Assembly (NCBI RefSeq): GCF_055900595.2
Contig: NZ_CM148325.1
Strand: one strand, 5' to 3'
Length of the DNA stretch: 64,000 nucleotides
Shown: positions 4,626 to 58,176 of the stretch, in pieces
Layout: every line of letters starts with the position of its first letter
Position numbering within the stretch: position 1 is the first letter of the stretch
Position numbers and translations under genes: made by a program
The notes under the pieces: model-generated
What the model saw: only the letters and a program-made list of their open reading frames with translations
The model's database searches: none
What the model was told of the DNA's origin: nothing

Positions 4626-5996
4626 TGCCCTGGATCGTGGCTGGGTAATACGTAAGCCACTGACACAGGCAGCAATCACTGCCAGAATAGCCGCAGCCAT
4701 CAGCGAGACGTGTGTACCATTATCACCAAACTGATTTAGCATCAGCGCCACCAGCGCCGCGCCACTACTCTGACCCAATAGACGAGCCGTCCCTAACATG
4801 CCACTGGCCCCACCGCTACGTTCGCGCGGAGCGGAGGTAATAATGGTGTGGTTATTGGGTGACTGGAATAAGCCAAATCCAGCGCCACATAAGATCATCG
4901 GCCAGATAATATTGATATCCGCAGGTGACGCGGGCAGCAGAACCAGGGAAAAAAGCCCCGCAGACATGATGAACAACCCTAAAGCACCCAGCAATCCTGC
5001 ATGTACGCGTTCAATTAAATAGCCTGCCAGCGGAGCCATCACCATTGTTGCTAACGGCCACGGTGTCAGAAGTAAACCTGTTTCGACTTCACTACGCCCG
5101 AGCACGGTTTGCAGGTAAAAGGGCAGGGAAACCATTGCCAGCATTTGTGCGCAGAAAGAGCAAACAGATGTGCAAATAGAAAGTGAAAACAGCGGGATAC
5201 GCAGTAAATCCACCGGTAGCAGCGGTACGGGAAGAGAAAGCTGGCGGCGAATAAAGAAAATACCAACGACAACCATTACCACCAGTTCCGCGCCAATCAA
5301 CGTCAGCGATTGCCCCTGAGCGAAACCACTCAATGCAGTAATAAGCAGGCCGAAGGTTAACGCGTTCATCACGGCGCTGGGCAGGTCGAAACGGGGTTTA
5401 CTGGCACGAGAGCCATTGGGTGGCAGAAAACGCATGGCCAGAAGCAGGGCGATAATACCCAACGGTACGTTGATTAAAAATAACCATTTCCAGGATGCGA
5501 TGGAGAGGATTGCTGCAGCAATTGTCGGCCCGGCAGCAGAAGAGACGGCAACAATAAACGAGTTTACGCCCATCCCTCTACCCAGAAAACGTTGTGGATA
5601 GATCAGGCGGATAAGTGCGGTATTAACGCTCATCAACGCTGCACCGCCGAAACCTTGTATGACACGCGCAAGGGTGAGCATTTGTAGCGAATCAGAAAGG
5701 GCGCAGAACAGTGAAGACAACAGAAAAACGACCAGACCACATTTATAAATACGTCGATAGCCAAACATATCGCCCAGAAACGAAAACGAGAGCAGGGAGA
5801 TGACAATGGCGATTTGATAGGCGTTCACTACCCAGATGGAACTGGCCGGTGTGGCATGAAGGTCTGTGGCGATTGTTGGCAAGGCGACGTTGGCGATTGC
5901 GCCGTCAAGCACAGCCATCGAAATACCAATCACAATGGTTAATATCGCACCGTATCGCTGGGGCAACGGCAGGCCGTCGGCCTGAACTTTTGGCAT
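4623..5996 (-). CDS. yebQ: MFS transporter YebQ
   Basis: Track ORF 4623..6107 trimmed to ATG at 5996 (MPKVQADGLPLPQRYGAILTIV...); 457 aa, multi-TM MFS-like. Confidence 0.85.
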   Translation of the reverse strand: MPKVQADGLPLPQRYGAILTIVIGISMAVLDGAIANVALPTIATDLHATPASSIWVVNAYQIAIVISLLSFSFLGDMFGYRRIYKCGLVVFLLSSLFCALSDSLQMLTLARVIQGFGGAALMSVNTALIRLIYPQRFLGRGMGVNSFIVAVSSAAGPTIAAAILSIASWKWLFLINVPLGIIALLLAMRFLPPNGSRASKPRFDLPSAVMNALTFGLLITALSGFAQGQSLTLIGAELVVMVVVGIFFIRRQLSLPVPLLPVDLLRIPLFSLSICTSVCSFCAQMLAMVSLPFYLQTVLGRSEVETGLLLTPWPLATMVMAPLAGYLIERVHAGLLGALGLFIMSAGLFSLVLLPASPADINIIWPMILCGAGFGLFQSPNNHTIITSAPRERSGGASGMLGTARLLGQSSGAALVALMLNQFGDNGTHVSLMAAAILAVIAACVSGLRITQPRSRA

Positions 5997-8836: not shown

Positions 8837-9046
8837 ATGGCAAAGATTAAAGGTCAGGTTAAGTGGTTCAACGAGTCTAAAGGTTTTGGCTTCATCACTC
8901 CGGCTGATGGCAGCAAAGACGTGTTCGTACACTTCTCCGCTATCCAGGGTAATGGCTTCAAAACTCTGGCTGAAGGTCAGAACGTTGAGTTCGAAATTCA
9001 GGACGGCCAGAAAGGTCCGGCAGCTGTTAACGTAACAGCTATCTGA
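8837..9046 (+). CDS. cspC: cold-shock-domain protein CspC
   Basis: 69-aa [40 protein letters not shown]..., canonical CSD RNP motifs. Confidence 0.97.
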
Positions 9047-9091
9047 TCGAATCCACTGATCTGAAGTGTGAAGACACTTCAATCTCGCTAT

Positions 9092-9118
9092 AAAGCCTCG
9101 TCGAATGCGAGGCTTTTT
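9092..9118 (+). terminator. intrinsic terminator downstream of cspC
   Basis: stem aaagcctcg / cgaggcttt followed by a 5-T run. Confidence 0.8.
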
Positions 9119-9211
9119 ACTTTGCTTTATCTTCGCTCCTGGCATTCGGATATTTGCCCGCCGCGTGATTCGCGTTACACTTGCGGACTTTAGTATCCTG
9201 CCGGAGTTGTC

Positions 9212-10021
9212 ATGTCGTTTTCCTGTCCACTTTGCCATCAGCCTCTCTCGCGTGAAAAAAACAGCTATATCTGTCCCCAGCGACATCAGTTTGATATGGC
9301 GAAAGAAGGGTATGTCAACCTGTTGCCTGTTCAGCATAAACGATCTCGTGATCCGGGCGACAGCGCGGAAATGATGCAAGCACGACGCGCATTCTTAGAT
9401 GCCGGACATTATCAGCCGCTGCGTGATGCAATTGTTGCCCAACTGCGGGAACAGCTTGATGAAACGGCCACGGCGGTGCTGGATATCGGCTGTGGTGAAG
9501 GGTATTACACACACGCATTTGCCGATGCGTTGCCCGAAATCACCACGTTTGGTCTGGATGTCTCGAAGGTGGCGATCAAAGCTGCGGCAAAACGCTATCC
9601 GCAGGTCACTTTTTGTGTCGCTTCCAGTCACCGTTTGCCGTTTGCCGATGCCAGCATGAACGCCATTATTCGCATCTATGCGCCGTGTAAAGCAGAAGAA
9701 TTAGCGCGCGTAGTGAAGCCCGGCGGTTGGATCATTACAGCTACGCCGGGACCGCGACATTTGATGGAGCTGAAGGGGCTGATTTACAATGAAGTACATC
9801 TTCATGCACCTCATGCAGAACAACTGGAAGGTTTTACATTACAGCAGAGTGATGAGTTGTGTTATCCGATGCGTCTTCGCGGTGACGAAGCCGTCGCGTT
9901 ATTGCAGATGACGCCGTTTGCCTGGCGAGCGAAGCCAGAAGTCTGGCAAACGCTGGCAGCAAAAGAAGTGTTTGACTGCCAGACGGACTTTAATATTCAC
10001 CTCTGGCAGCGTTCTTATTAA
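9212..10021 (+). CDS. rlmA: 23S rRNA (guanine745-N1)-methyltransferase RlmA
   Basis: 269-aa [31 protein letters not shown]... (zinc-ribbon N-terminus, SAM-MTase fold motif DIGCGEGYY). Confidence 0.95.
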
Positions 10022-10584
10022 CCGTGGAAGTGCGTCCAGAGGATCTGGACGCCGATGCCGATCAGTACCAGCCCGCCGAGAATTTCCGCTTTCTTCCCAA
10101 TAATTGAGCCGATAAAGCGACCAACCATCATCCCTAATGTCGACATAATCAAGGTTGCACAACCAATGGCTAATGCGGTCGCGATAATGTTGACCTGCAG
10201 GAAGGCCAGACCAACCCCCACAGCCATCGCATCCAGGCTGGTGGCAATCGCGGTGGTTACCAGTAGCCAGAAACCGTGTCGACGGCGCGGTTCTTCATCT
10301 TCATCATCTGCACCACGAAAACCCTCGATAATCATTCGCCCACCGAGGAATATCAGCAGCACAAACGCAATCCAGTGATTCCATTCAAGGACAAACCGGC
10401 TGGCTAACATGCCCATTCCCCAGCCGATCAGCGGCGTCAGGGTTTCGACGGCACCAAAAATAAGGCCAGTTCGCAAAGCTTCAGAAAATTTCGGTTTATG
10501 GAGGGTGGCACCTTTACCGATTGATGCAGCAAATGCATCCATCGACATACCAAACGCAAGAAGAACAGTAGCAGTGATATTCAT
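10018..10584 (-). CDS. mntP: manganese efflux pump MntP
   Basis: Track ORF 10018..10638 trimmed to ATG at 10584 ([21 protein letters not shown]...), AGGA Shine-Dalgarno 10 nt upstream; 188 aa. Confidence 0.9.
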
Positions 10585-10699
10585 GACAACGTCCTGACCG
10601 GGGTATCCATAAAACACATCATCGCCCCCAGCAAACATGCATACATGAACAACAAACCGCGATGATTTTCGCGTTCATGCAGGCATAGCGATTGATGTG

Positions 10700-10805
10700 C
10701 ATATGGTCTCGCCTGACTGAAAGTGTTCAGTTCGTACGTGCCACGTTTTGCAACGAGTATGTTGACACGTACATTTCCGGAATCTGGAAATCGGCTACTC
10801 CCCAA
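10700..10805 (-). promoter_or_regulatory. yybP-ykoY family Mn(II) riboswitch aptamer in mntP 5' leader
   Basis: Minus-strand leader carries conserved GGGGAGUAGCC ... GUCAACAUAC ... CAGGCGAGACC blocks typical of the yybP-ykoY motif, upstream of mntP. Confidence 0.7.
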
Positions 10806-11012
10806 ATGAGGGCGCAACATTAACATATTTTTAGAATATAAAACAACTGTTGGGATATATTATTTCAGCAGTTAATTGATAACGATTTTCATTTAGATTT
10901 ATATATCAATGAAACGTTAAAATAAATAACAAATAAGGGATGGGATAATATAGCCTAAGCTATGTCTGATTATTTAAAATACAGCAAACATAGCTTTGGC
11001 TAAATTCATAAC

Positions 11013-11471
11013 TTATTGAGTGGAAACAAGAAGTTTATAAATTTTCTCCAGGTCGTCGATATTTCGAACGCGGATTAACAGCCGGCGCTGTTCTAATTGC
11101 ATCACTAACACGCCATCTTCAGACAAGTTCATCGCTTTAATTCGACTATATTCAATCCAGACATTGGCGAAGAAAAAACCTTTTTGTTTAAAGATGATCT
11201 TCGGAACGCGGATCCAGAAAATATAAAACCCCATTAGAGCCAGTGCACTTAATAACCATGTCGTTATTTGCGCGCCATGATTCGTGACGTTGTTATAGAT
11301 AAGAATGACAATCAGTCCTACGAAGATAACGCTGTCGATGCGGCCACGTCGGAGCAAAGGAATTGCCAGCAGGGTGGGGCCGTTGCGGCGGGGCATGATG
11401 AACTGATCGTAGATCGCGAAGGTCAGGAGTGCGGCGATAAAAAGAATCAGTACCAGGTCCGTGATTGTCAT
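11013..11471 (-). CDS. yobD: UPF0266 membrane protein YobD
   Basis: 152-aa [27 protein letters not shown]..., multi-TM. Confidence 0.85.
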
Positions 11472-41740: not shown

Positions 41741-42143
41741 GCGGGCCAACCGGTACGCCGCGAAACAGCGCCACGCCCAAAACAGTGCCCACCAGCAGCC
41801 CGGCGACCAGTTGCGGCTGGCTGCCCATTAACGTCACGCCGCGCCCACCTAGCCAGGAGACAATAACGCCTACTGCAATTGCCACCAGCGATTTCCAGTT
41901 CAGAAACGAGTGAATCAGGGTTGAGGGCGGTAGCGTCCCGCTGGCGATGGGGGCCATAACGCCAATCGTCAGAATGATTATCCCGATACTTAGCCCCTGT
42001 TTTTCAATCCACGGGAAAAAGGTGCTTAACGGTGTGACGCGGACAATGATTAACACCAGAATTGAAACGGCGACAGTGGTGTTATGACTGATAAAGCCCA
42101 GCGCAGCTAACCCGAGCAGGATCAGCAAAGTGACATCAAACAT
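41697..42143 (-). CDS. yeaL: DUF441 membrane protein YeaL
   Basis: 148-aa [39 protein letters not shown]... Confidence 0.85.
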
Positions 42144-42312
42144 CGTGGTTTCCTTGCCAAAAAATAATAAGCCTGCTTACTTTACGCTTGCTGCAGGAAG
42201 GAAGTAGAAAATCTTTACGTTTTTTGCATAAAAAATCAGGCGAACTGTCATCAAACTGCCATTTGTGCACGCTAACAATAACGTGAAAACAGCTATCTCC
42301 CCGGGGCATACT

Positions 42313-42417
42313 ATGAACGATCAAATGTTTGTCGAGACACTGATTATCACGTCATCGTTTTTTGCCATTGCTGTTGTGCTGGTTTTGTCCGTTCTGCTTA
42401 TTGAACGGACAGGCTAG
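42313..42417 (+). CDS. yoaI: small membrane protein YoaI (34 aa)
   Basis: Translated by hand: [34 protein letters not shown]; absent from track (under 60 aa). Confidence 0.75.
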
Positions 42418-42921
42418 TTACGCAGTGCGGCGGAAATTGACCAGTTCTGGTTGCGCAATGCGCAAATAATCCGCGGTTTTCAAAATAACGGATTTATCCA
42501 GCATGCCTGCATTGAAGGCGATTTCATCAAATCGTTCGAAGAGTAGGGGGTCGGCAACCAGTTTGAGTTTTGGATGGAAGCTGAAAGGGGGGATCGCGCC
42601 GAAGACACAGCCTGTGAGTTCATCGACTTCCGCCGGGCTGGCCAACGAAGCGCGTAATCCGCCTATATGGATGGCAAGTTGGCTCAGATCGGCCTGTTGA
42701 TCGGCAGCGAGGATCGCCAGAACATGTTGATTTACGCCATTGCCTTTGACTTTACATACCAGTGCCTTAGCCCCCTGGCCTAAAGCGGTGCCACGAATTT
42801 CTGACACCGCTTCGCATTTACCTACCGCCTCATGGGTAACGACGCGGAAGTCAGCACCTTCTTGTGATAATAAAGCGATTAACCGCTGATGCGTCACGCT
42901 TCCTTTAGCCATTTCAGTCAT
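42418..42921 (-). CDS. yeaK: YbaK/ProX-family aminoacyl-tRNA deacylase YeaK
   Basis: 167-aa ORF MTEMAKGSVTHQRLIALLSQEGADFRVVTHEAVGKCEAVSEIRG... Confidence 0.88.
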   Translation of the reverse strand: MTEMAKGSVTHQRLIALLSQEGADFRVVTHEAVGKCEAVSEIRGTALGQGAKALVCKVKGNGVNQHVLAILAADQQADLSQLAIHIGGLRASLASPAEVDELTGCVFGAIPPFSFHPKLKLVADPLLFERFDEIAFNAGMLDKSVILKTADYLRIAQPELVNFRRTA

Positions 42922-42963
42922 TTCACGCTCCTGAGATTACAAGCAAACAACCACAGAAGATTA

Positions 42964-44454
42964 TCATGAACGGCTGTTTTTGTTCTGCTTATTGACATAT
43001 AAACGCTCATCGGAAGCTTTATACGCATCATGTAACGTATCGTTTTCTTTCATCGCATAAATACCGGAAGAGAAGCCGATCTCTTTCTGCGGCGCGATAT
43101 GTTGCAGACGTTTTTCGATACGTTCAGGCAGTTGTGCTGCAATTTGCGGCGTCGAATCGACAAGAATGATGCAGAATTCATCGCCACCGAGTCGGATGGC
43201 ATAATCACTTTTACGAATCGACTGTTTAATCGCCTGAGCTAATAACGTAATCGCTAAATCTCCTTCCTGATGACCGAGCGTGTCATTTATTTGCTTTAAC
43301 TTGTCCATGTCAATTGCAATAAACATCACCGAAGAACCAGATTGCACCAGTTTTTGCAACCGCTGCTCCAGTTCAGGGGTTAATATTTTGCGATTATACA
43401 GTCCGGTCATCGCATCACTAATATTTTCTCGCGACACATTTTGGTATAAACGGAAGTGCATCCGCACCATATTCAGCAAAATTAACGCCGTCAAAATCCA
43501 GAACAGAACGCTTTTCCACGAAGATGTGATAAAGTAAAGAATATCAATGGATAACGATACACGAATGCCGCCCGGTAAGTCATGGACGTAACTGACATAC
43601 TGGAACAGATTATCTTCGCTCTGGTTGATGATAATGTCGCGCCCAGAATCTGTATCGGTTAGCGTGACATTGAGAAAACGCCAGAGGAGAGGGCGGTCAT
43701 GCGTGTAAAAGATATTCCGCAGATTGTTTTTGTTAATATCCAGCAGCACAATTCCTTTTAGCTGCCCTGCAACATACACTGGCGTCAGCAAACTCATCAC
43801 GTTCTGTTTAGTACGCTGATCCTGGTAAATGCTCGATAATACGGTGCGACCGGTAAAAACTTTTTCAATATCTTTGCGATCGATGCCAATGCTTCCTGAC
43901 TGCAGGAAGGACCAGTTATTCATCGCAAAGTACTCAACATTAACCGGCTCATAAAAATAGACATAGAGGTCATTGAGATCGAGATAATAGTGAAATTTCT
44001 CTTCGGCCATTCCAAGACCTGAACCATAATCATCCTGGTGGCGGTTGCCTTCCACTGCCTGATCAAAAGCGGGTAATAGTGCTGCAGCTTCCACAATTGT
44101 GTCGCATTCAGTGGATGCGGTTTGTAGTGTACCGTGTAAGCCCGTGTACTTATGGGCAGTCAGGTTTAAGCCATGGGTATTATTGGCAGACTCAAAAGCC
44201 TCGCAGATGGTACGCCGCTGTTCTGGCGACACTTCCGACTGCTCAGCAGCGAGAGCGCGCATCACATGCGCGGCAATACTCTGATTTTGATACTTGTCAT
44301 AAAGAAAGGAGGAATCTGCTCTCTGCACGATATAGCGCAGATAGGCACTCATTGCTCTGTCGCTGGCGACAAGTTCAAAAATAAGGAAGGAAGATGTCAG
44401 CACAATGACACTTGCGGCGATAAAATGCCGGAGCATTCTATGGTGCAATTTCAT
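42964..44454 (-). CDS. dgcJ: diguanylate cyclase DgcJ (YeaJ), membrane sensor plus GGDEF
   Basis: Track ORF 42964..44634 trimmed to ATG at 44454 (MKLHHRMLRHFIAASVIVLTSSF...); GGDEF motif RLGGDEF; 496 aa. Confidence 0.88.
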   Translation of the reverse strand: MKLHHRMLRHFIAASVIVLTSSFLIFELVASDRAMSAYLRYIVQRADSSFLYDKYQNQSIAAHVMRALAAEQSEVSPEQRRTICEAFESANNTHGLNLTAHKYTGLHGTLQTASTECDTIVEAAALLPAFDQAVEGNRHQDDYGSGLGMAEEKFHYYLDLNDLYVYFYEPVNVEYFAMNNWSFLQSGSIGIDRKDIEKVFTGRTVLSSIYQDQRTKQNVMSLLTPVYVAGQLKGIVLLDINKNNLRNIFYTHDRPLLWRFLNVTLTDTDSGRDIIINQSEDNLFQYVSYVHDLPGGIRVSLSIDILYFITSSWKSVLFWILTALILLNMVRMHFRLYQNVSRENISDAMTGLYNRKILTPELEQRLQKLVQSGSSVMFIAIDMDKLKQINDTLGHQEGDLAITLLAQAIKQSIRKSDYAIRLGGDEFCIILVDSTPQIAAQLPERIEKRLQHIAPQKEIGFSSGIYAMKENDTLHDAYKASDERLYVNKQNKNSRS

Positions 44455-44634
44455 GATAAATGGCACTCCTTCGGTTAGTGAAACGAGAAAACCAGATAAA
44501 GTTCGATTGCGGCCTGGCACAGGGGCGCTAATTATACTCATCTCTGCGCCGCTGGGGAGGGGAAATTTAGGGGTAATAGTAATAAATTGTATGCAAAAGC
44601 CACGCAAAAAGCATGGCTCTGAATATTTTTGCAC

Positions 44635-46083
44635 TTAAATATGATGAATAATCACTTTGTTGCCCCCCTCGCTTTTCGCTTCGCGTAAGGCTTTATCTGC
44701 TTCCGTCATGACAAGCGAGATATTACGCGTGTCACCCGTTGAAAAAACCGTGCCAATACTGATGGTCATTTGTTCAGGAACATCATATCTGTTACTAAAA
44801 CCGGTCAGGAGTTCGACATTTTTACGCATACGTTCCGCAATGATTTTTGCCTGGGCACTATTGAGTTCGGTAAATAGCAAGCCAAACACCTCACCCTCCA
44901 GTCGCGCTAAAATATCATCGGGGCGGATGCTTTGCTGGATAATATCGACAATTGAAACCAGCACTTTATCACCCACACGATGTCCCCATTGGGCATTGAT
45001 GCGCTTGAACTGATTAATATCAACCAGCATGACACAAAAGTCCTTAACAACAGGTCGCGACAATAATGACTCTACGCTGTTGAAAAAGTAGCGCCGATTA
45101 TAAATATTGGTCAGTACATCATGAACTGCCAGTTTGCTGGAGAGTTGCAGTTCCTGAAAAATGTTATAAATCAGAAAAGACACAACAAACAGTTTACTGG
45201 AAACTTCAATCCCGCGACTGATATACCAGATGGTGTAATTATACTCATCCAGAGTCAGTAGAAGTAAGTTGCAGCATAGCGATGCCAGACATAATAATGC
45301 TATTAACGGCCATAGTTCGCTGGCTAATCGTGTACGCATGATAATAAAGAACAGTAAAAATGCCCACAGACAAACCAATATTTTTGTATAGTTGATTCCC
45401 CAGGTCGCAGTATGGTTGTCCGGACAGTAATCGACGACATACAAAGAATAGTCAGCGTTATAACTGCTCAGATTGTGTGCCAGAAGGGGAAATACTAAAA
45501 AAGGGATCAGCGTCAGTAACAGGATCCCCGTTTTTTTCTTATTGTTGTTAAGAATGTTGTCTTTACCATAACAAAAGAGCGCCAGCGAGGTTAAACAAAT
45601 AAAACTGAGTTGGCGGAAAATATAGAAAATAGAAACATCATTCGACTTTGTCTGGATCAGTGTACTGCCGTTGATTGGTTTATGGATAATTACAATGGTT
45701 TCAACTAAATAGATAAGGCCACTTAAAAATGCAAGGCTTAAAATGAGTGTTGGTAAAATTTGTTTGTTAGTGAAATATTTCATCAACATGAAAAGAAAAA
45801 TGACGGCGTTAAGGAAGAACAAAGCCACAACAACCATCAGGTAATTCATCTGTGGAATGAGTTTTACATTCGTGTTTTCGTTATATAAGGTGGTGATGCA
45901 AAATAAAATTAACGTCAGCAATAAGCTGAAAATAAAAAAGCCTTGAGCTTTTAATTTTTGTGTACCCATAGAAACCATAAAAAGGAGAGCAATGTGAGTG
46001 CTGGATTTTATTGATGGCAGAGATATATGGTTTTGACCAAGATCAATTTTCGGTAACGATGCAAAATAATTAAAGAATAACAC
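44635..46083 (-). CDS. cdgI: GGDEF-domain membrane protein CdgI (YeaI)
   Basis: 482-aa track ORF from GTG; multi-TM N-terminal region and C-terminal GGDEF-like domain (RLEGEVFG); strongly AT-rich; true start uncertain. Confidence 0.8.
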   Translation of the reverse strand: MLFFNYFASLPKIDLGQNHISLPSIKSSTHIALLFMVSMGTQKLKAQGFFIFSLLLTLILFCITTLYNENTNVKLIPQMNYLMVVVALFFLNAVIFLFMLMKYFTNKQILPTLILSLAFLSGLIYLVETIVIIHKPINGSTLIQTKSNDVSIFYIFRQLSFICLTSLALFCYGKDNILNNNKKKTGILLLTLIPFLVFPLLAHNLSSYNADYSLYVVDYCPDNHTATWGINYTKILVCLWAFLLFFIIMRTRLASELWPLIALLCLASLCCNLLLLTLDEYNYTIWYISRGIEVSSKLFVVSFLIYNIFQELQLSSKLAVHDVLTNIYNRRYFFNSVESLLSRPVVKDFCVMLVDINQFKRINAQWGHRVGDKVLVSIVDIIQQSIRPDDILARLEGEVFGLLFTELNSAQAKIIAERMRKNVELLTGFSNRYDVPEQMTISIGTVFSTGDTRNISLVMTEADKALREAKSEGGNKVIIHHI

Positions 46084-46255
46084 GGGTAAATACGTGTTGA
46101 ACGAAGCATTTTTCCGAATGATTGTTTTCTGGAACTAAATTGTGTAAAGGTTGTGCTGTTATATTTAAAGCGATTGTAAGTTAATGTATATAATAAATGA
46201 GATGATTTACAGTGTGCTAAAAAACAGCCAGGCGACGATGACCCGGCTGATAGTT

Positions 46256-47551
<1,296 letters not shown>

Positions 47552-47651
47552 CTACATTTGCCAACTGTTTGCTACGCCTGTGTTGCCGCTTCTCTGGCCC
47601 ACGGTTCGCTGTCGTTGTAGGCCCGGTAGCATGCGTACCGGGCCATGGTTG

Positions 47652-49586
47652 TTAAGACGATTTACGTACGCGCAAATACCATTCGCACAGTAAACGCACC
47701 TGTTTACGGGTGTAGCCTTTTTCCATCATACGGTCGACAAAATCGTCGTGTTTCTTCTGCTCGTCGGTTGACGTTTTGGCGTTAAACGAAATAACCGGCA
47801 ACAGCTCCTCGGTATTAGAGAACATTTTCTTCTCAATAACCGTGCGCAGTTTTTCATAGCTGGTCCAGTTCGGATTGCGTCCGCTGTTATTCGCTCTGGC
47901 GCGCAGTACGAAGTTGACAATCTCGTTGCGGAAATCTTTTGGATTACTGATCCCCGCCGGTTTCTCAATTTTCTCCAGCTCAGCGTTGAGAGATTCGCGG
48001 TCAAATAGCTGCCCGGTATCCGGGTCGCGATACTCCTGATCCTGAATCCAGAAATCTGCATACGTGACATAACGGTCAAAAATGTTTTGTCCATATTCAG
48101 AATAGGATTCAAGATACGCAGTCTGAATCTCTTTACCGATAAACTCGGCATATTTCGGAATCAAGTAACCTTTCAGGAACTCGAGATAACGCTCAGCCTG
48201 CTCCTGAGGGAACTGCTCGCGCTCGATCTGCTGTTCCAGGACGTAGAACAGATGAACAGGGTTTGCTGCCACTTCCACGTGGTCGAAGTTGAACACGCGA
48301 GAGAGGATCTTAAACGCAAAACGCGTGGACAGACCGTTCATCCCTTCATCAACGCCTGCGTAGTCACGATATTCCTGATACGACTTGGCTTTCGGATCGG
48401 TGTCTTTCAGACTTTCGCCATCATAAACCCGCATCTTCGAATAAATGCTGGAGTTTTCCGGCTCTTTCAGACGCGAAAGAATGGAAAAACGAGACAGCGT
48501 TTCCAGCGTGCCAGGTGCGCAGGGGGCGTGAGTCAGTTCACTGTGATTAAGCAATTTCTCGTAGATTTTGATCTCTTCGGAAATACGCAAGCAATATGGC
48601 ACCTTCACGATATAAACACGATCGAGGAAGGCTTCGTTGTTCTTGTTATTACGGAAAGTGACCCATTCGGATTCGTTCGAATGGGCGAGAATAATCCCGT
48701 TAAACGGCAGGGCGGAGATACCTTCCGTCCCGTTGTAGTTACCTTCCTGAGTGGCGGTTAACAGGGGATGCAGCACTTTAATCGGGGCTTTAAACATCTC
48801 GACAAACTCCATGATCCCCTGGTTGGCGCGGCATAGTGCACCGGAATATCCGTAGGCGTCCGGATCGTTCTGCGCGTAGTGTTCGAGTTTACGGATATCG
48901 ACTTTCCCTACCAGCGCTGAGATGTCCTGGTTGTTCTCATCGCCAGGTTCCGTTTTGGCGATAGCAATTTGTTGCAGAATTGACGGCCAGACCTTTACCA
49001 CCCGGAACTTAGTAATATCGCCACCAAATTCATGCAGGCGTTTTGCTGCCCACGGCGACATGATGGTGCCAAGATAGCGTCGAGGAATGCCATACTCTTT
49101 TTCCAGAATCTGCGCATCTTCTTGCGGATTGAAAAGACAGAACGGATGATCGTTGACCGGGCTCCGCTCACCGTTAGCGCTTAATACATAGATCGGCACG
49201 AGCTGCATTAATGATTTCAGTCGCTCAGCAAGCGATGATTTACCCCCACCCACAGGCCCCAGCAGATACAGGATTTGTTTCTTCTCCTCCAGCCCCTGAG
49301 CCGCGTGTTTCAGATAAGAGACAATCTGTTCAATCGCGTCTTCCATGCCGTAAAACTCTTCAAAGGCTGGGTAACGTGCAATGACCCGGTTAGAAAAGAG
49401 TCGAGAAAGTCTGGGTTCCTGGGCTGTATCGACCATGACAGGCTCACCGATAGCCATCAATAGCCGCTCAGCCGCGTTGGCATAAGCACTGCGATCTTGC
49501 CGACAAGTGGTAAGAAACTCCTGCAGTGTGAACTCTTCGTTCTTGGCAGCTTCATATCGCTGGCGATAGTGATCGAATATATTCAT
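47652..49586 (-). CDS. yeaG: PrkA-family serine protein kinase YeaG
   Basis: 644-aa ORF MNIFDHYRQRYEAAKNEEFTLQEFLTTCRQDRSAYANAAERLL..., Walker A-like LLGPVGGGKSS. Confidence 0.95.
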   Translation of the reverse strand: MNIFDHYRQRYEAAKNEEFTLQEFLTTCRQDRSAYANAAERLLMAIGEPVMVDTAQEPRLSRLFSNRVIARYPAFEEFYGMEDAIEQIVSYLKHAAQGLEEKKQILYLLGPVGGGKSSLAERLKSLMQLVPIYVLSANGERSPVNDHPFCLFNPQEDAQILEKEYGIPRRYLGTIMSPWAAKRLHEFGGDITKFRVVKVWPSILQQIAIAKTEPGDENNQDISALVGKVDIRKLEHYAQNDPDAYGYSGALCRANQGIMEFVEMFKAPIKVLHPLLTATQEGNYNGTEGISALPFNGIILAHSNESEWVTFRNNKNNEAFLDRVYIVKVPYCLRISEEIKIYEKLLNHSELTHAPCAPGTLETLSRFSILSRLKEPENSSIYSKMRVYDGESLKDTDPKAKSYQEYRDYAGVDEGMNGLSTRFAFKILSRVFNFDHVEVAANPVHLFYVLEQQIEREQFPQEQAERYLEFLKGYLIPKYAEFIGKEIQTAYLESYSEYGQNIFDRYVTYADFWIQDQEYRDPDTGQLFDRESLNAELEKIEKPAGISNPKDFRNEIVNFVLRARANNSGRNPNWTSYEKLRTVIEKKMFSNTEELLPVISFNAKTSTDEQKKHDDFVDRMMEKGYTRKQVRLLCEWYLRVRKSS

Positions 49587-56755: not shown

Positions 56756-57478
56756 TTAATCCTGCAACGCATAGGTTACGGTGGTGACTACGCGTACCGT
56801 TTTATTAATCGCCGTAGGATCATCTTCATCACTGCCACTGGCGAAGATCTGGAACACGCCTTGTGAGGCATCGCTAATTGACCCCACCTGGCTACCTGAG
56901 TCCGTTGCAAATTGTAATGCTGCGTTGCGTGCATCTTTGGTGGCGGCGGCAATCATCTCAGCGCGCAGTGCGCCAATACCATTAAAGCGATAGGCGACTT
57001 TGCTCTCAGCGATAGCGCCCTCCGTAGCGACTTGCAGTTCGTTTAATTTCGCGACGACTTTTTCGACAGCAGCAACATTATGGGTTTTTATCGTCACTGA
57101 CCCGTCTGCGTTATAGCGTGGCATTGTGGGATCATCTTTCAGATAAAAGGAATCTGTTCGCTTGCTTGTCCATTGGCCCAGGGTTATCTCTTTCTCGTTA
57201 ATCCCCTGAGCATTGAGTTCGGCAACAATTTTTTTCTGCGCGTCTTCCAGTTTCGGGAACAGTTCGCCGGGAATATTACCCTTAAAGTTAATCGCAATTG
57301 TTAATTCTGCCGTATCTGCGCGAACTTCTTTTTCAGAAAGCCCACGCACATTTACATAACGGTTATTGGTTTTCAAATGTTTAACACCATCGCCAACAAA
57401 ATAACCACAGGCGCTAATCCCCAGTCCGAGGACGATAGCGGCAATTAAAGAGGGGGCCTTATTCACTGATGACTCCAT
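56756..57478 (-). CDS. SIMPL/DUF541-like putative lipoprotein
   Basis: C-terminal ~240 codons of track ORF 56756..57925; ATG at 57478 (MESSVNK...) or, better supported, GTG at 57466 with GGAG 6 nt upstream giving (M)NKAPSLIAAIVLGLGISAC lipobox signal; family call from recalled SIMPL architecture. Confidence 0.55.
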   Translation of the reverse strand: MESSVNKAPSLIAAIVLGLGISACGYFVGDGVKHLKTNNRYVNVRGLSEKEVRADTAELTIAINFKGNIPGELFPKLEDAQKKIVAELNAQGINEKEITLGQWTSKRTDSFYLKDDPTMPRYNADGSVTIKTHNVAAVEKVVAKLNELQVATEGAIAESKVAYRFNGIGALRAEMIAAATKDARNAALQFATDSGSQVGSISDASQGVFQIFASGSDEDDPTAINKTVRVVTTVTYALQD

Positions 57479-57717
57479 ATCAGATGCTAAATGAGCAAGG
57501 GAATGTAGTGGAGAGAGGGAGTGAAAGACAGTCCGATTCAGGAGTGTGGCCGACAGCATATCGGCCACATTTTTGTGCACAGAAAACCCCCAGCTAGGCT
57601 GGGGGTTCCGGAAAGCTTTCAGCTTTGAGCCAGTTATTAAAACCCCTTTTGATTTGTTAAAACACCTTGCGGTCTGGCAACTGCAAGTGTCAAACAAGAA
57701 ATCAAAAGGGGGTCCCA

Positions 57718-58176
57718 ATGGGGGACGAAAAGAGCTTAGCGCACACCCGCTGGAACTGTAAATATCACATAGTTTTTGCGCCGAAATACCGAAGACTGGC
57801 GTTTTACGGAGAGAAGCGTAGGGCGATAGGCAGTATTTTGAGAAAGCTGTGTGAGTGGAAAAGCGTACGGATTCTGGAAGCAGAGTGCTGCGCAGATCAT
57901 ATCCATATGCTTGTGGAAATCCCACCCAAAATGAGCGTATCCGGCTTTATGGGATATCTGAAAGGGAAAAGCAGTCTGATGCTTTACGAGCAGTTTGGGG
58001 ATTTGAAATTCAAATACAGAAACAGGGAGTTCTGGTGCCGAGGGTACTATGTCGATACGGTGGGTAAGAACACGGCGAAGATACAGGACTACATAAAGCA
58101 CCAGCTTGAAGAGGATAAAATGGGGGAGCAGTTATCGATTCCATATCCGGGCAGCCCGTTTACGGGCCGTAAGTAA
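57718..58176 (+). CDS. tnpA: IS200 transposase TnpA (HUH/Y1 family)
   Basis: Track ORF 57667..58176 trimmed to ATG at 57718: MGDEKSLAHTRWNCKYHIVFAPKYRR...HIHMLVEIPPK...; HUH motif (HIHML) and catalytic-Tyr region recognisable. Confidence 0.92.
   Translation: MGDEKSLAHTRWNCKYHIVFAPKYRRLAFYGEKRRAIGSILRKLCEWKSVRILEAECCADHIHMLVEIPPKMSVSGFMGYLKGKSSLMLYEQFGDLKFKYRNREFWCRGYYVDTVGKNTAKIQDYIKHQLEEDKMGEQLSIPYPGSPFTGRK

Follow-up and report, generated by a model that had tools for sequence, protein, structure and literature searches.

The locus and its two GGDEF proteins

The minus strand of a 64-kb stretch of the Escherichia coli chromosome (contig NZ_CM148325.1; the whole stretch is referred to below as the window, and supplies all coordinates) carries two adjacent genes, dgcJ (yeaJ) and cdgI (yeaI), each of which encodes a membrane protein with a GGDEF domain. 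Both genes have a lower content of guanine plus cytosine (GC) than the genes around them, and a sequence-only reading of the window had taken this contrast to indicate an older horizontally acquired or H-NS-silenced module. The interpretation favored here, at a probability of roughly 0.8, is that dgcJ and cdgI are two resident chromosomal genes of cyclic di-GMP (c-di-GMP) signaling, and that their AT-richness is real, stable, lineage-wide and mostly dictated by the proteins that they encode.

The coding sequence of dgcJ (42964-44454) specifies a membrane diguanylate cyclase of 496 amino acids (aa), identified through the NCBI Prokaryotic Genome Annotation Pipeline (PGAP) on an identical record, through Pfam and through its match to K-12, with 99% aa identity to the K-12 DgcJ. 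The coding sequence of cdgI (44635-45978; PGAP, and the analysis of its start given below) specifies 447 aa when read from the ATG at 45978, and its product is 99.3% identical to K-12 CdgI over the 447 shared residues. The gene names and coordinates of the sequence-only reading agree with PGAP, Pfam and K-12 identity. Stop of cdgI and start of dgcJ are separated by a 180-bp spacer (44455-44634, minus strand, GC 0.45; PGAP and the list of open reading frames) which happens to be open in the dgcJ frame: this is why the mechanically delimited open reading frame (ORF) of dgcJ extends to 556 aa.

The sensor domains of the two proteins are unrelated. DgcJ has a periplasmic GAPES1 domain (aa 31-304, 43543-44364, minus strand; Pfam PF17155, E=1e-148 over the full model), in which the aligned proteins of Salmonella, E. 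fergusonii and Citrobacter all share Y210 (43825-43827) and D239 (43738-43740); this is followed by a GGDEF domain (aa 346-494, 42973-43419, minus strand; PF00990, E=3.2e-40) with a canonical GGDEF motif (aa 423-427, 43174-43188) and an RKSD I-site (43204-43215). CdgI has an integral-membrane MASE4 domain (aa 44-275, 45154-45849, minus strand; PF17158, E=6.3e-49), which is the most AT-rich part of the gene, followed by a GGDEF domain that is degenerate (aa 284-441, 44656-45129, minus strand; PF00990, E=8.8e-45).

The locus is found in 5390-5408 of 5426 complete E. coli genomes. Over positions 42964-46300 the window matches strain Z0117EC0005 (NZ_CP098223.1) at 100% identity, and nearly every one of the 5426 at about 97%; the particular allele set of the window recurs at 99% or more DNA identity in just 8 of them.

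How AT-rich, and why?

The comparison set for base composition consists of the 51 other annotated genes of the window with at least 100 codons (mean GC 0.515, standard deviation 0.026). Against it, cdgI has the lowest GC of all (0.388-0.393; z -4.8), and dgcJ, at 0.449 (z -2.6), is undercut only by leuE, cdgI aside. Both genes lie below the GC of the window as a whole (0.495), the dgcJ-cdgI stretch averages 0.421, and the minimum-GC 1.45-kb segment of the entire 64 kb falls within cdgI. That the pair is more AT-rich than its neighbors is thus borne out, strongly for cdgI and moderately for dgcJ. At third codon positions (GC3) cdgI is again lowest of the set (0.446 vs 0.540 ± 0.044), while dgcJ, at 0.487 (z -1.2), is inside the window range. 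The long A/T runs that had been remarked on in cdgI are there at the highest density in the window: 9.7 vs 2.9 per kb for homopolymers of A or T of at least 5 (z 3.1), and 13.4 vs 1.8 per kb for runs of at least 8 drawn from A and T together (z 5.6). The accompanying claim of AAA/TTT-rich codons stands only in part, these making up 8.5% of cdgI codons vs 5.9% (z 1.6), a mild excess. By all three measures dgcJ is unexceptional.

What is the source of the deficit? Encoding each amino-acid sequence with the average codon usage of the window yields an expected GC of 0.434 for cdgI and 0.470 for dgcJ, compared with 0.517 for the other genes. About two-thirds of the deficit of each gene (12 points in cdgI, smaller for dgcJ) is accordingly attributable to amino-acid composition, and about one-third to synonymous codons. 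The synonymous residual of cdgI (-0.041, z -2.4) is the lowest of 52 genes, and that of dgcJ (-0.021) is unremarkable. CdgI consists to 50% of Phe, Ile, Leu, Met, Asn, Lys and Tyr (other genes, 34%) and to 14% of Gly, Ala, Arg and Pro (other genes, 27%). The two halves of cdgI have similar GC3 (0.448 for MASE4, 0.462 for GGDEF) but unequal total GC (0.371 vs 0.447), so that the extreme AT-richness of the 5' half is that of a membrane domain. The Karlin codon-bias distance, which was used together with the amino-acid-expected GC to judge codon usage, is ordinary for both genes (0.25-0.26, vs 0.32 ± 0.10). The low GC is mostly a matter of amino-acid composition, and appears not to be one of foreign codon usage.

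It is also a persistent property. E. coli, E. whittamii, E. fergusonii and three Citrobacter species all have a cdgI with a GC of 0.36-0.39, next to a yeaG and a yeaH with one of 0.47-0.51; dgcJ is 3-9 points below its neighbors in every lineage compared; and dgcT, the K-12 paralogue that also has a MASE4 domain, has a GC of 0.386 and a GC3 of 0.408. (The dgcT gene, at 8877-10235 of the K-12 locus L036, adjoins the moderately AT-rich pgaABCD operon and an IS3 element.) Synonymous sites are saturated between Escherichia and Citrobacter, and the low GC of cdgI has not ameliorated. Equally low GC across lineages whose synonymous sites are saturated marks it as a stable trait of the gene and of its family: it does not date any transfer, and it does not look like the fading mark of a recent one.

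A cyclase domain that has lost its motif

The GGDEF motif of cdgI had been described from sequence as degenerate-looking (RLEGEVFG), and degenerate it is: RLEGEVFG is present, and EGEVF (residues 361-365 of the 447-aa form, 44884-44898) replaces GG(D/E)EF. Two other parts of the substrate site are changed as well: INAQWGH stands for INDxxGH, and GGN for GRN. The I-site is intact: RPDD (aa 352-355, 44914-44925) is followed by ILARL and then by EGEVF, a five-residue gap.

An alignment of 20 CdgI homologues places these changes. The syntenic Citrobacter orthologues and more distant MASE4-GGDEF proteins keep GGEEF, the guanine-binding Asp of INDxxGH, and GRN. In the Escherichia proteins the first of these reads EGEVF, EGEEF, DGEVF, EGDVF, EGNVF or EGKRF; all have GGN, and in most of them the guanine-binding Asp has become Ala or Asn (INA or INN). 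The I-site residues R352 and D355 of RxxD are invariant in 20 of the 20, as are many MASE4 residues. A canonical site in Citrobacter and an altered one in Escherichia argue that catalysis was lost in the Escherichia lineage, where the c-di-GMP-binding site would have stayed under constraint.

Truncated forms of CdgI, without most or all of the GGDEF domain, also exist (P0015, 345 aa; P0024, 295 aa; P0025, 281 aa); in E. coli their clusters have 639, 249 and 934 members, respectively. It appears from these that cdgI has been repeatedly inactivated in some E. coli lineages.

Where does cdgI begin?

The sequence-only reading had flagged the start codon of cdgI as uncertain, and correctly so, since existing annotations disagree: RefSeq for K-12 uses an ATG that yields 491 aa, and PGAP uses the ATG at 45978. 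Position 46083, where the sequence-only reading had placed the 5' end of the pair, is the GTG of the longest possible cdgI ORF, and the K-12 RefSeq ATG is 27 nt further upstream. The K-12-type ATG (46107-46109) is out of frame in the window, owing to a 1-bp deletion relative to K-12. (It opens a 33-codon upstream ORF, MLRSTRIYPCYSLIILHRYRKLILVKTIYLCHQ, at 46008-46109 on the minus strand, which stops 30 nt short of the ATG of cdgI; the window also has a 6-bp hairpin, at 46079-46098, that K-12 lacks.)

Over the 35 codons that lead from the GTG at 46083 to the ATG at 45978, the window and K-12 show 7 non-synonymous and 0 synonymous differences, as compared with 3 non-synonymous and 21 synonymous differences in the gene proper. 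Across Escherichia species, the proportion of non-synonymous differences (pN) in codons -35 to -1 equals or exceeds that of synonymous ones (pS), while pN/pS of the gene itself is 0.03-0.19. Three in-frame stops interrupt the extension in E. fergusonii, and stops are also found in Citrobacter orthologues, in which the ATG at 45969 is the sole conserved cdgI start. The upstream extension thus evolves as non-coding DNA, so that the start is probably the ATG at 45978 or the better conserved one at 45969. The other two candidates fail: the GTG at 46083 by pN/pS and the in-frame stops of relatives, the K-12 ATG by the frame shift and the non-coding evolution of the extension. Deletion, pN/pS and stops together identify 45979-46109 (minus strand), the N-terminal extension of the 491-aa form in K-12, as non-coding leader; the K-12 gene model carries the same non-coding extension, and correcting it would be useful for annotation.

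The junction between yeaH and dgcJ

In the window, PGAP places yeaK at 42418-42921, yeaH at 46256-47539 and yeaG at 47652-49586, all on the minus strand, so that the order of transcription is yeaG-yeaH-cdgI-dgcJ-yeaK. How old is this arrangement? One genome per species was scanned with a DgcJ profile, and the five proteins were then mapped onto the loci found. The order yeaG-yeaH-(slot)-dgcJ-yeaK recurs in Escherichia, in about 20 Citrobacter species and in Buttiauxella (where yeaK was not found); two Salmonella loci, cut short upstream, show yeaH-(slot)-dgcJ-yeaK. It is the slot, at 44455-46255 in the window, that varies. It holds cdgI in all Escherichia, E. fergusonii included, and in Citrobacter sp. 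NCU1, Awk 4 and R56, that is, in 3 of about 20 Citrobacter species representatives and in 0 of 2 Salmonella subspecies sampled. Many other Citrobacter have there, on the opposite strand, a methyltransferase-like ORF of 256 aa, sometimes accompanied by ORFs of 136 and 204 aa; C. amalonaticus, C. sedlakii and C. werkmanii have an empty slot of about 140-170 bp; and Salmonella arizonae and diarizonae have some 660 bp of AT-rich DNA (GC 38-40%) that contains no ORF. The distribution of orthologues, proposed as a check on horizontal acquisition, is therefore patchy for cdgI (Escherichia and three Citrobacter), while dgcJ is syntenic in Escherichia, Citrobacter, Salmonella and Buttiauxella. When the spacers between yeaH and dgcJ in Salmonella, C. 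amalonaticus, C. werkmanii and Buttiauxella were searched (tblastn, sensitive blastn), no cdgI remnants rose above chance, which leaves gain and loss of cdgI indistinguishable. (In E. fergusonii, at locus L034, there is no nimR between yeaL and a major facilitator superfamily transporter gene, and the yeaK homologue is longer, at 183 aa.)

The neighbors of dgcJ-cdgI are housekeeping genes, with no mobility genes beside the pair; there is no tRNA gene in the 64 kb, and there are no convincing direct or inverted repeats bracketing the two genes. CdgI of the window is 86% identical to its E. albertii counterpart, 77% to that of E. fergusonii and 57-62% to those of Citrobacter; DgcJ is 95% identical to that of E. 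whittamii, 67% to that of E. fergusonii and 63-68% to those of Salmonella and Citrobacter. Identity falls broadly with species distance, which fits vertical descent; the exception is E. fergusonii DgcJ, which is as far from E. coli as the Salmonella and Citrobacter proteins are. Both proteins evolve far faster than their neighbors, E. coli being 98-99% identical to Citrobacter and Salmonella in YeaG, 94-97% in YeaH and 83-88% in YeaK. (The fast divergence of DgcJ may reflect diversifying pressure on its periplasmic sensor domain.) Both are nonetheless under purifying selection: the ratio of non-synonymous to synonymous substitution rates (dN/dS) is 0.03-0.05 for dgcJ and 0.09-0.11 for cdgI, the latter the highest of five neighboring genes, and the cdgI ORF is intact in E. 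coli, E. albertii, E. fergusonii and E. whittamii.

H-NS, regulation and published function

In K-12, yeaI contains a so-called promoter island that presumably corresponds to 45680-45985 of the window (±10 bp), a conversion made through the start coordinate of the gene in the older K-12 genome version on which the published table is based. The position so obtained agrees with that of an SrsR site at 1,868,366 in the spacer from yeaH to cdgI, and local GC there, 0.34-0.39, is the lowest of the window. The island is 304 bp long (entry 1868534_304 yeaI(+), one of 78 in Table 1 of PMC3661553); it is bound by H-NS in all the studies compared there that combined chromatin immunoprecipitation (ChIP) with microarrays, and the genes associated with it are classed as foreign in the predictions of GIST, of Nakamura et al. 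and of Lawrence & Ochman (PMC3661553). It also binds Dps preferentially (PMC4433220). H-NS silencing, the second half of what the sequence-only reading had proposed, accordingly finds support for cdgI in published K-12 ChIP data (PMC3661553).

SrsR binds the yeaH-cdgI spacer in a genomic SELEX screen and activates cdgI (PMC9181523), and AppY has a ChIP peak within cdgI (PMC10057817). In the window, a candidate cdgI promoter, TTTACA-16-AACAAT, lies at 46148-46121 (element 46121-46156, minus strand; a match to consensus), and is overlapped by GCACAACCTTT at 46146-46156, which in alignment is one base off the K-12 GCATAACCTTT. Mapped by eye, the latter appears to be the reverse complement of the SrsR box of that spacer (PMC9181523). 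Further upstream, a terminator-like hairpin followed by a T-run (46225-46249, minus strand), just past the yeaH stop (46256), separates yeaH from cdgI. The sole Rfam match in 42000-47000 is a chance-level snoRNA (E 0.59).

CdgI of K-12, with its degenerate GGDEF motif and intact I-site, binds c-di-GMP, pairs with several other GGDEF domains in two-hybrid tests, is undetectable under standard laboratory conditions and is toxic if over-produced (PMC5635695). It has been placed with DgcT and DgcX in a MASE4-GGDEF family and called catalytically non-functional (PMC10459773). Deleting yeaI generates biofilm phenotypes, including a defect in glycerol medium that an active cyclase does not complement (PMC3484386). 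Salmonella YeaJ makes c-di-GMP; YeaJ/DgcJ senses autoinducer-2 (AI-2) through GAPES1, in which Y210 and D239 are the key residues, and the homologue of enterohemorrhagic E. coli (EHEC) O157:H7 binds AI-2 (PMC9637222). The Y210/D239 criterion for AI-2 receptors among GAPES1 proteins is set out in PMC9637222 and PMC12503165.

Resident, acquired or decaying?

If dgcJ and cdgI are resident genes, what do they do? By analogy with its Salmonella and EHEC homologues, dgcJ would encode an active diguanylate cyclase whose GAPES1 domain senses AI-2; it is probably an old, vertically inherited and fast-evolving member of a yeaG-yeaH-dgcJ-yeaK neighborhood of the Enterobacteriaceae. CdgI would be a membrane protein of the MASE4 type, with a GGDEF domain that ceased to be catalytic in Escherichia and kept RxxD; an RxxD site kept without catalysis suggests that it works as a c-di-GMP-binding protein, not as an enzyme, and, to judge by the published two-hybrid data, its mode of action may be to pair with the GGDEF domains of other proteins. 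Its AT-rich 5' half would be the H-NS-bound promoter island described for K-12, which fits its near-silence in the laboratory, and its expression would need specific activators, of which SrsR and AppY have been reported. Silencing and weak expression may well be what maintains the AT bias of cdgI. On its origin, cdgI was presumably present in the common ancestor and was later lost from Salmonella and most Citrobacter. Composition, domains, motifs, synteny, purifying selection and the start codon come from the present analysis; H-NS binding, c-di-GMP binding, AI-2 sensing and the lack of expression come from the literature.

Several observations weigh against this account. The H-NS high-affinity motif TCGATAAATT, scanned with up to 2 mismatches, is not enriched in cdgI (window-wide, 107 matches vs 71 expected). 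A sigma-70 consensus scan of 42000-48000, a crude tool, returns 9 sites vs 9.9 expected, without a promoter-like excess, and so does not reproduce the promoter island. The H-NS occupancy is extrapolated from K-12, to which the window is 98% identical in cdgI. YeaI has been listed among verified cyclases, and WspR complements its loss in one medium (PMC3484386), which is at odds with a purely non-catalytic role. Truncated alleles show cdgI to be dispensable in some E. coli lineages. Finally, no remnants having been found, an old insertion of cdgI is as compatible with the data as ancestral presence followed by losses.

The last of these points leads to the alternative that survives best, in which cdgI alone was acquired long ago from an AT-rich donor and inserted between yeaH and dgcJ in an ancestor of Escherichia, one Citrobacter lineage having received or donated it by recombination, and H-NS xenogeneic silencing having kept it AT-rich. 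We think this possible, if clearly less probable than residence. Its patchy distribution (all Escherichia, 3 of about 20 Citrobacter, neither Salmonella subspecies sampled) is what such a history would leave behind, and so is a junction that other Citrobacter fill with unrelated genes; three published methods predict a foreign origin for yeaI, and H-NS binds it (PMC3661553); the MASE4-GGDEF family of E. coli is AT-rich as a whole; and one of its members, dgcX, is described as horizontally mobile (PMC10459773). On the other hand, cdgI is unaccompanied by a tRNA gene, integrase, insertion sequence (IS) element or flanking direct repeats, and its codon-usage distance from the window genes is ordinary. 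The identity between Escherichia and Citrobacter CdgI (57-61%) parallels that of the certainly ancestral DgcJ (63-64%). Moreover, GC3 of cdgI has not moved towards that of the host despite saturated synonymous sites, contrary to what simple amelioration predicts. Of the older horizontal acquisition that the sequence-only reading had suggested, this is the part that retains some plausibility; as regards dgcJ, or the two genes as one module, it is refuted by the conserved synteny of dgcJ.

A more speculative elaboration of the resident-gene account, which we rate as tentative and on balance doubtful, sees in CdgI an enzyme that has recently turned into a receptor: an active MASE4-GGEEF cyclase at the yeaH-dgcJ junction, canonical to this day in a few Citrobacter species, would have lost catalysis in the Escherichia stem, kept RxxD and become a c-di-GMP-controlled partner or inhibitor of GGDEF proteins, possibly of DgcJ itself, with AT-richness selected because H-NS silencing contains a protein that is toxic if over-produced.

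Could cdgI instead be a decaying relic without function, its AT-richness and its lost motif both due to relaxed selection and a GC-to-AT mutation bias? This is quite improbable. The catalytic motif is degenerate and still varying, the protein is undetectable in K-12 (PMC5635695), truncated alleles circulate, and dN/dS is the highest of the five neighboring genes; yet that ratio is about 0.1 across Escherichia species, far under 1, the ORF is intact in four of them, RxxD and many MASE4 residues are invariant in 20 homologues, and both deletion phenotypes and c-di-GMP binding have been published (PMC3484386, PMC5635695). Canonical-motif orthologues in Citrobacter are equally AT-rich, so that AT-richness predates the degeneration that it is supposed to accompany. 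A pseudogene, in particular, is ruled out by the dN/dS and the conserved ORFs.

That dgcJ and cdgI came in jointly and fairly recently as one AT-rich GGDEF module is scarcely credible: the two genes are indeed adjacent, co-stranded, below window GC and alike in having GGDEF domains, but dgcJ sits beside yeaK in Salmonella, some 20 Citrobacter species and Buttiauxella, mostly without cdgI (which refutes the module for dgcJ), the locus is nearly universal in complete E. coli genomes, the sensor domains are unrelated, and GC3 of dgcJ is within the window range.

Other features of the window

Synonymous divergence from K-12 is mosaic along 42418-49586 (yeaG 0.26, yeaH 0.18, dgcJ 0.115, cdgI 0.074, yeaK 0.06), which suggests recombination breakpoints. 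At 10584-11013 a 1-bp indel separates the window from NZ_CP098223.1, and annotated coordinates upstream are shifted by one base; the window must then differ slightly from that record, unless a homopolymer error has crept into either. The interval from ansA to sppA (56756-58176) is occupied by a SIMPL-domain gene and an IS200/IS605 tnpA.

Comparison with known systems

Much of this is already in print: the genes themselves, the degenerate motif, c-di-GMP binding, the H-NS-bound AT-rich island and AI-2 sensing. What is added is small and will not surprise a specialist: a corrected start for cdgI, a loss of catalysis that canonical cyclases at the same position in Citrobacter date to the Escherichia lineage, and the stability of the AT bias. 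A low GC that is driven by composition and stable over deep time is, more generally, a caution against inferring gene transfer from AT-richness alone.

The closest relative of the cdgI product is naturally K-12 CdgI (YeaI, b1785), which it resembles in EGEVF, the RPDD I-site, the position between yeaH and dgcJ, and low GC (0.385 in K-12); the differences are a 491-aa start made unusable in the window by the 1-bp deletion, and a leader that deviates at several bases. DgcJ shares GAPES1, GGDEF, an RxxD I-site, Y210 and D239 with the YeaJ proteins of E. coli and Salmonella, but the experimentally studied one, that of Salmonella, is just 68% identical to it. Like H-NS-bound promoter islands and xenogeneically silenced genes, among which yeaI has been listed, cdgI is AT-rich and poorly expressed; unlike them, it is near-universal in E. 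coli, under purifying selection, syntenic across the genus and free of mobility signatures, and so no strain-specific island. DgcT (YcdT) and DgcX have the architecture of CdgI, about 38-40% identity to it, and its AT-richness; they are active enzymes and retain the three features that CdgI has given up, namely GGEEF, the guanine-binding Asp and GRN.

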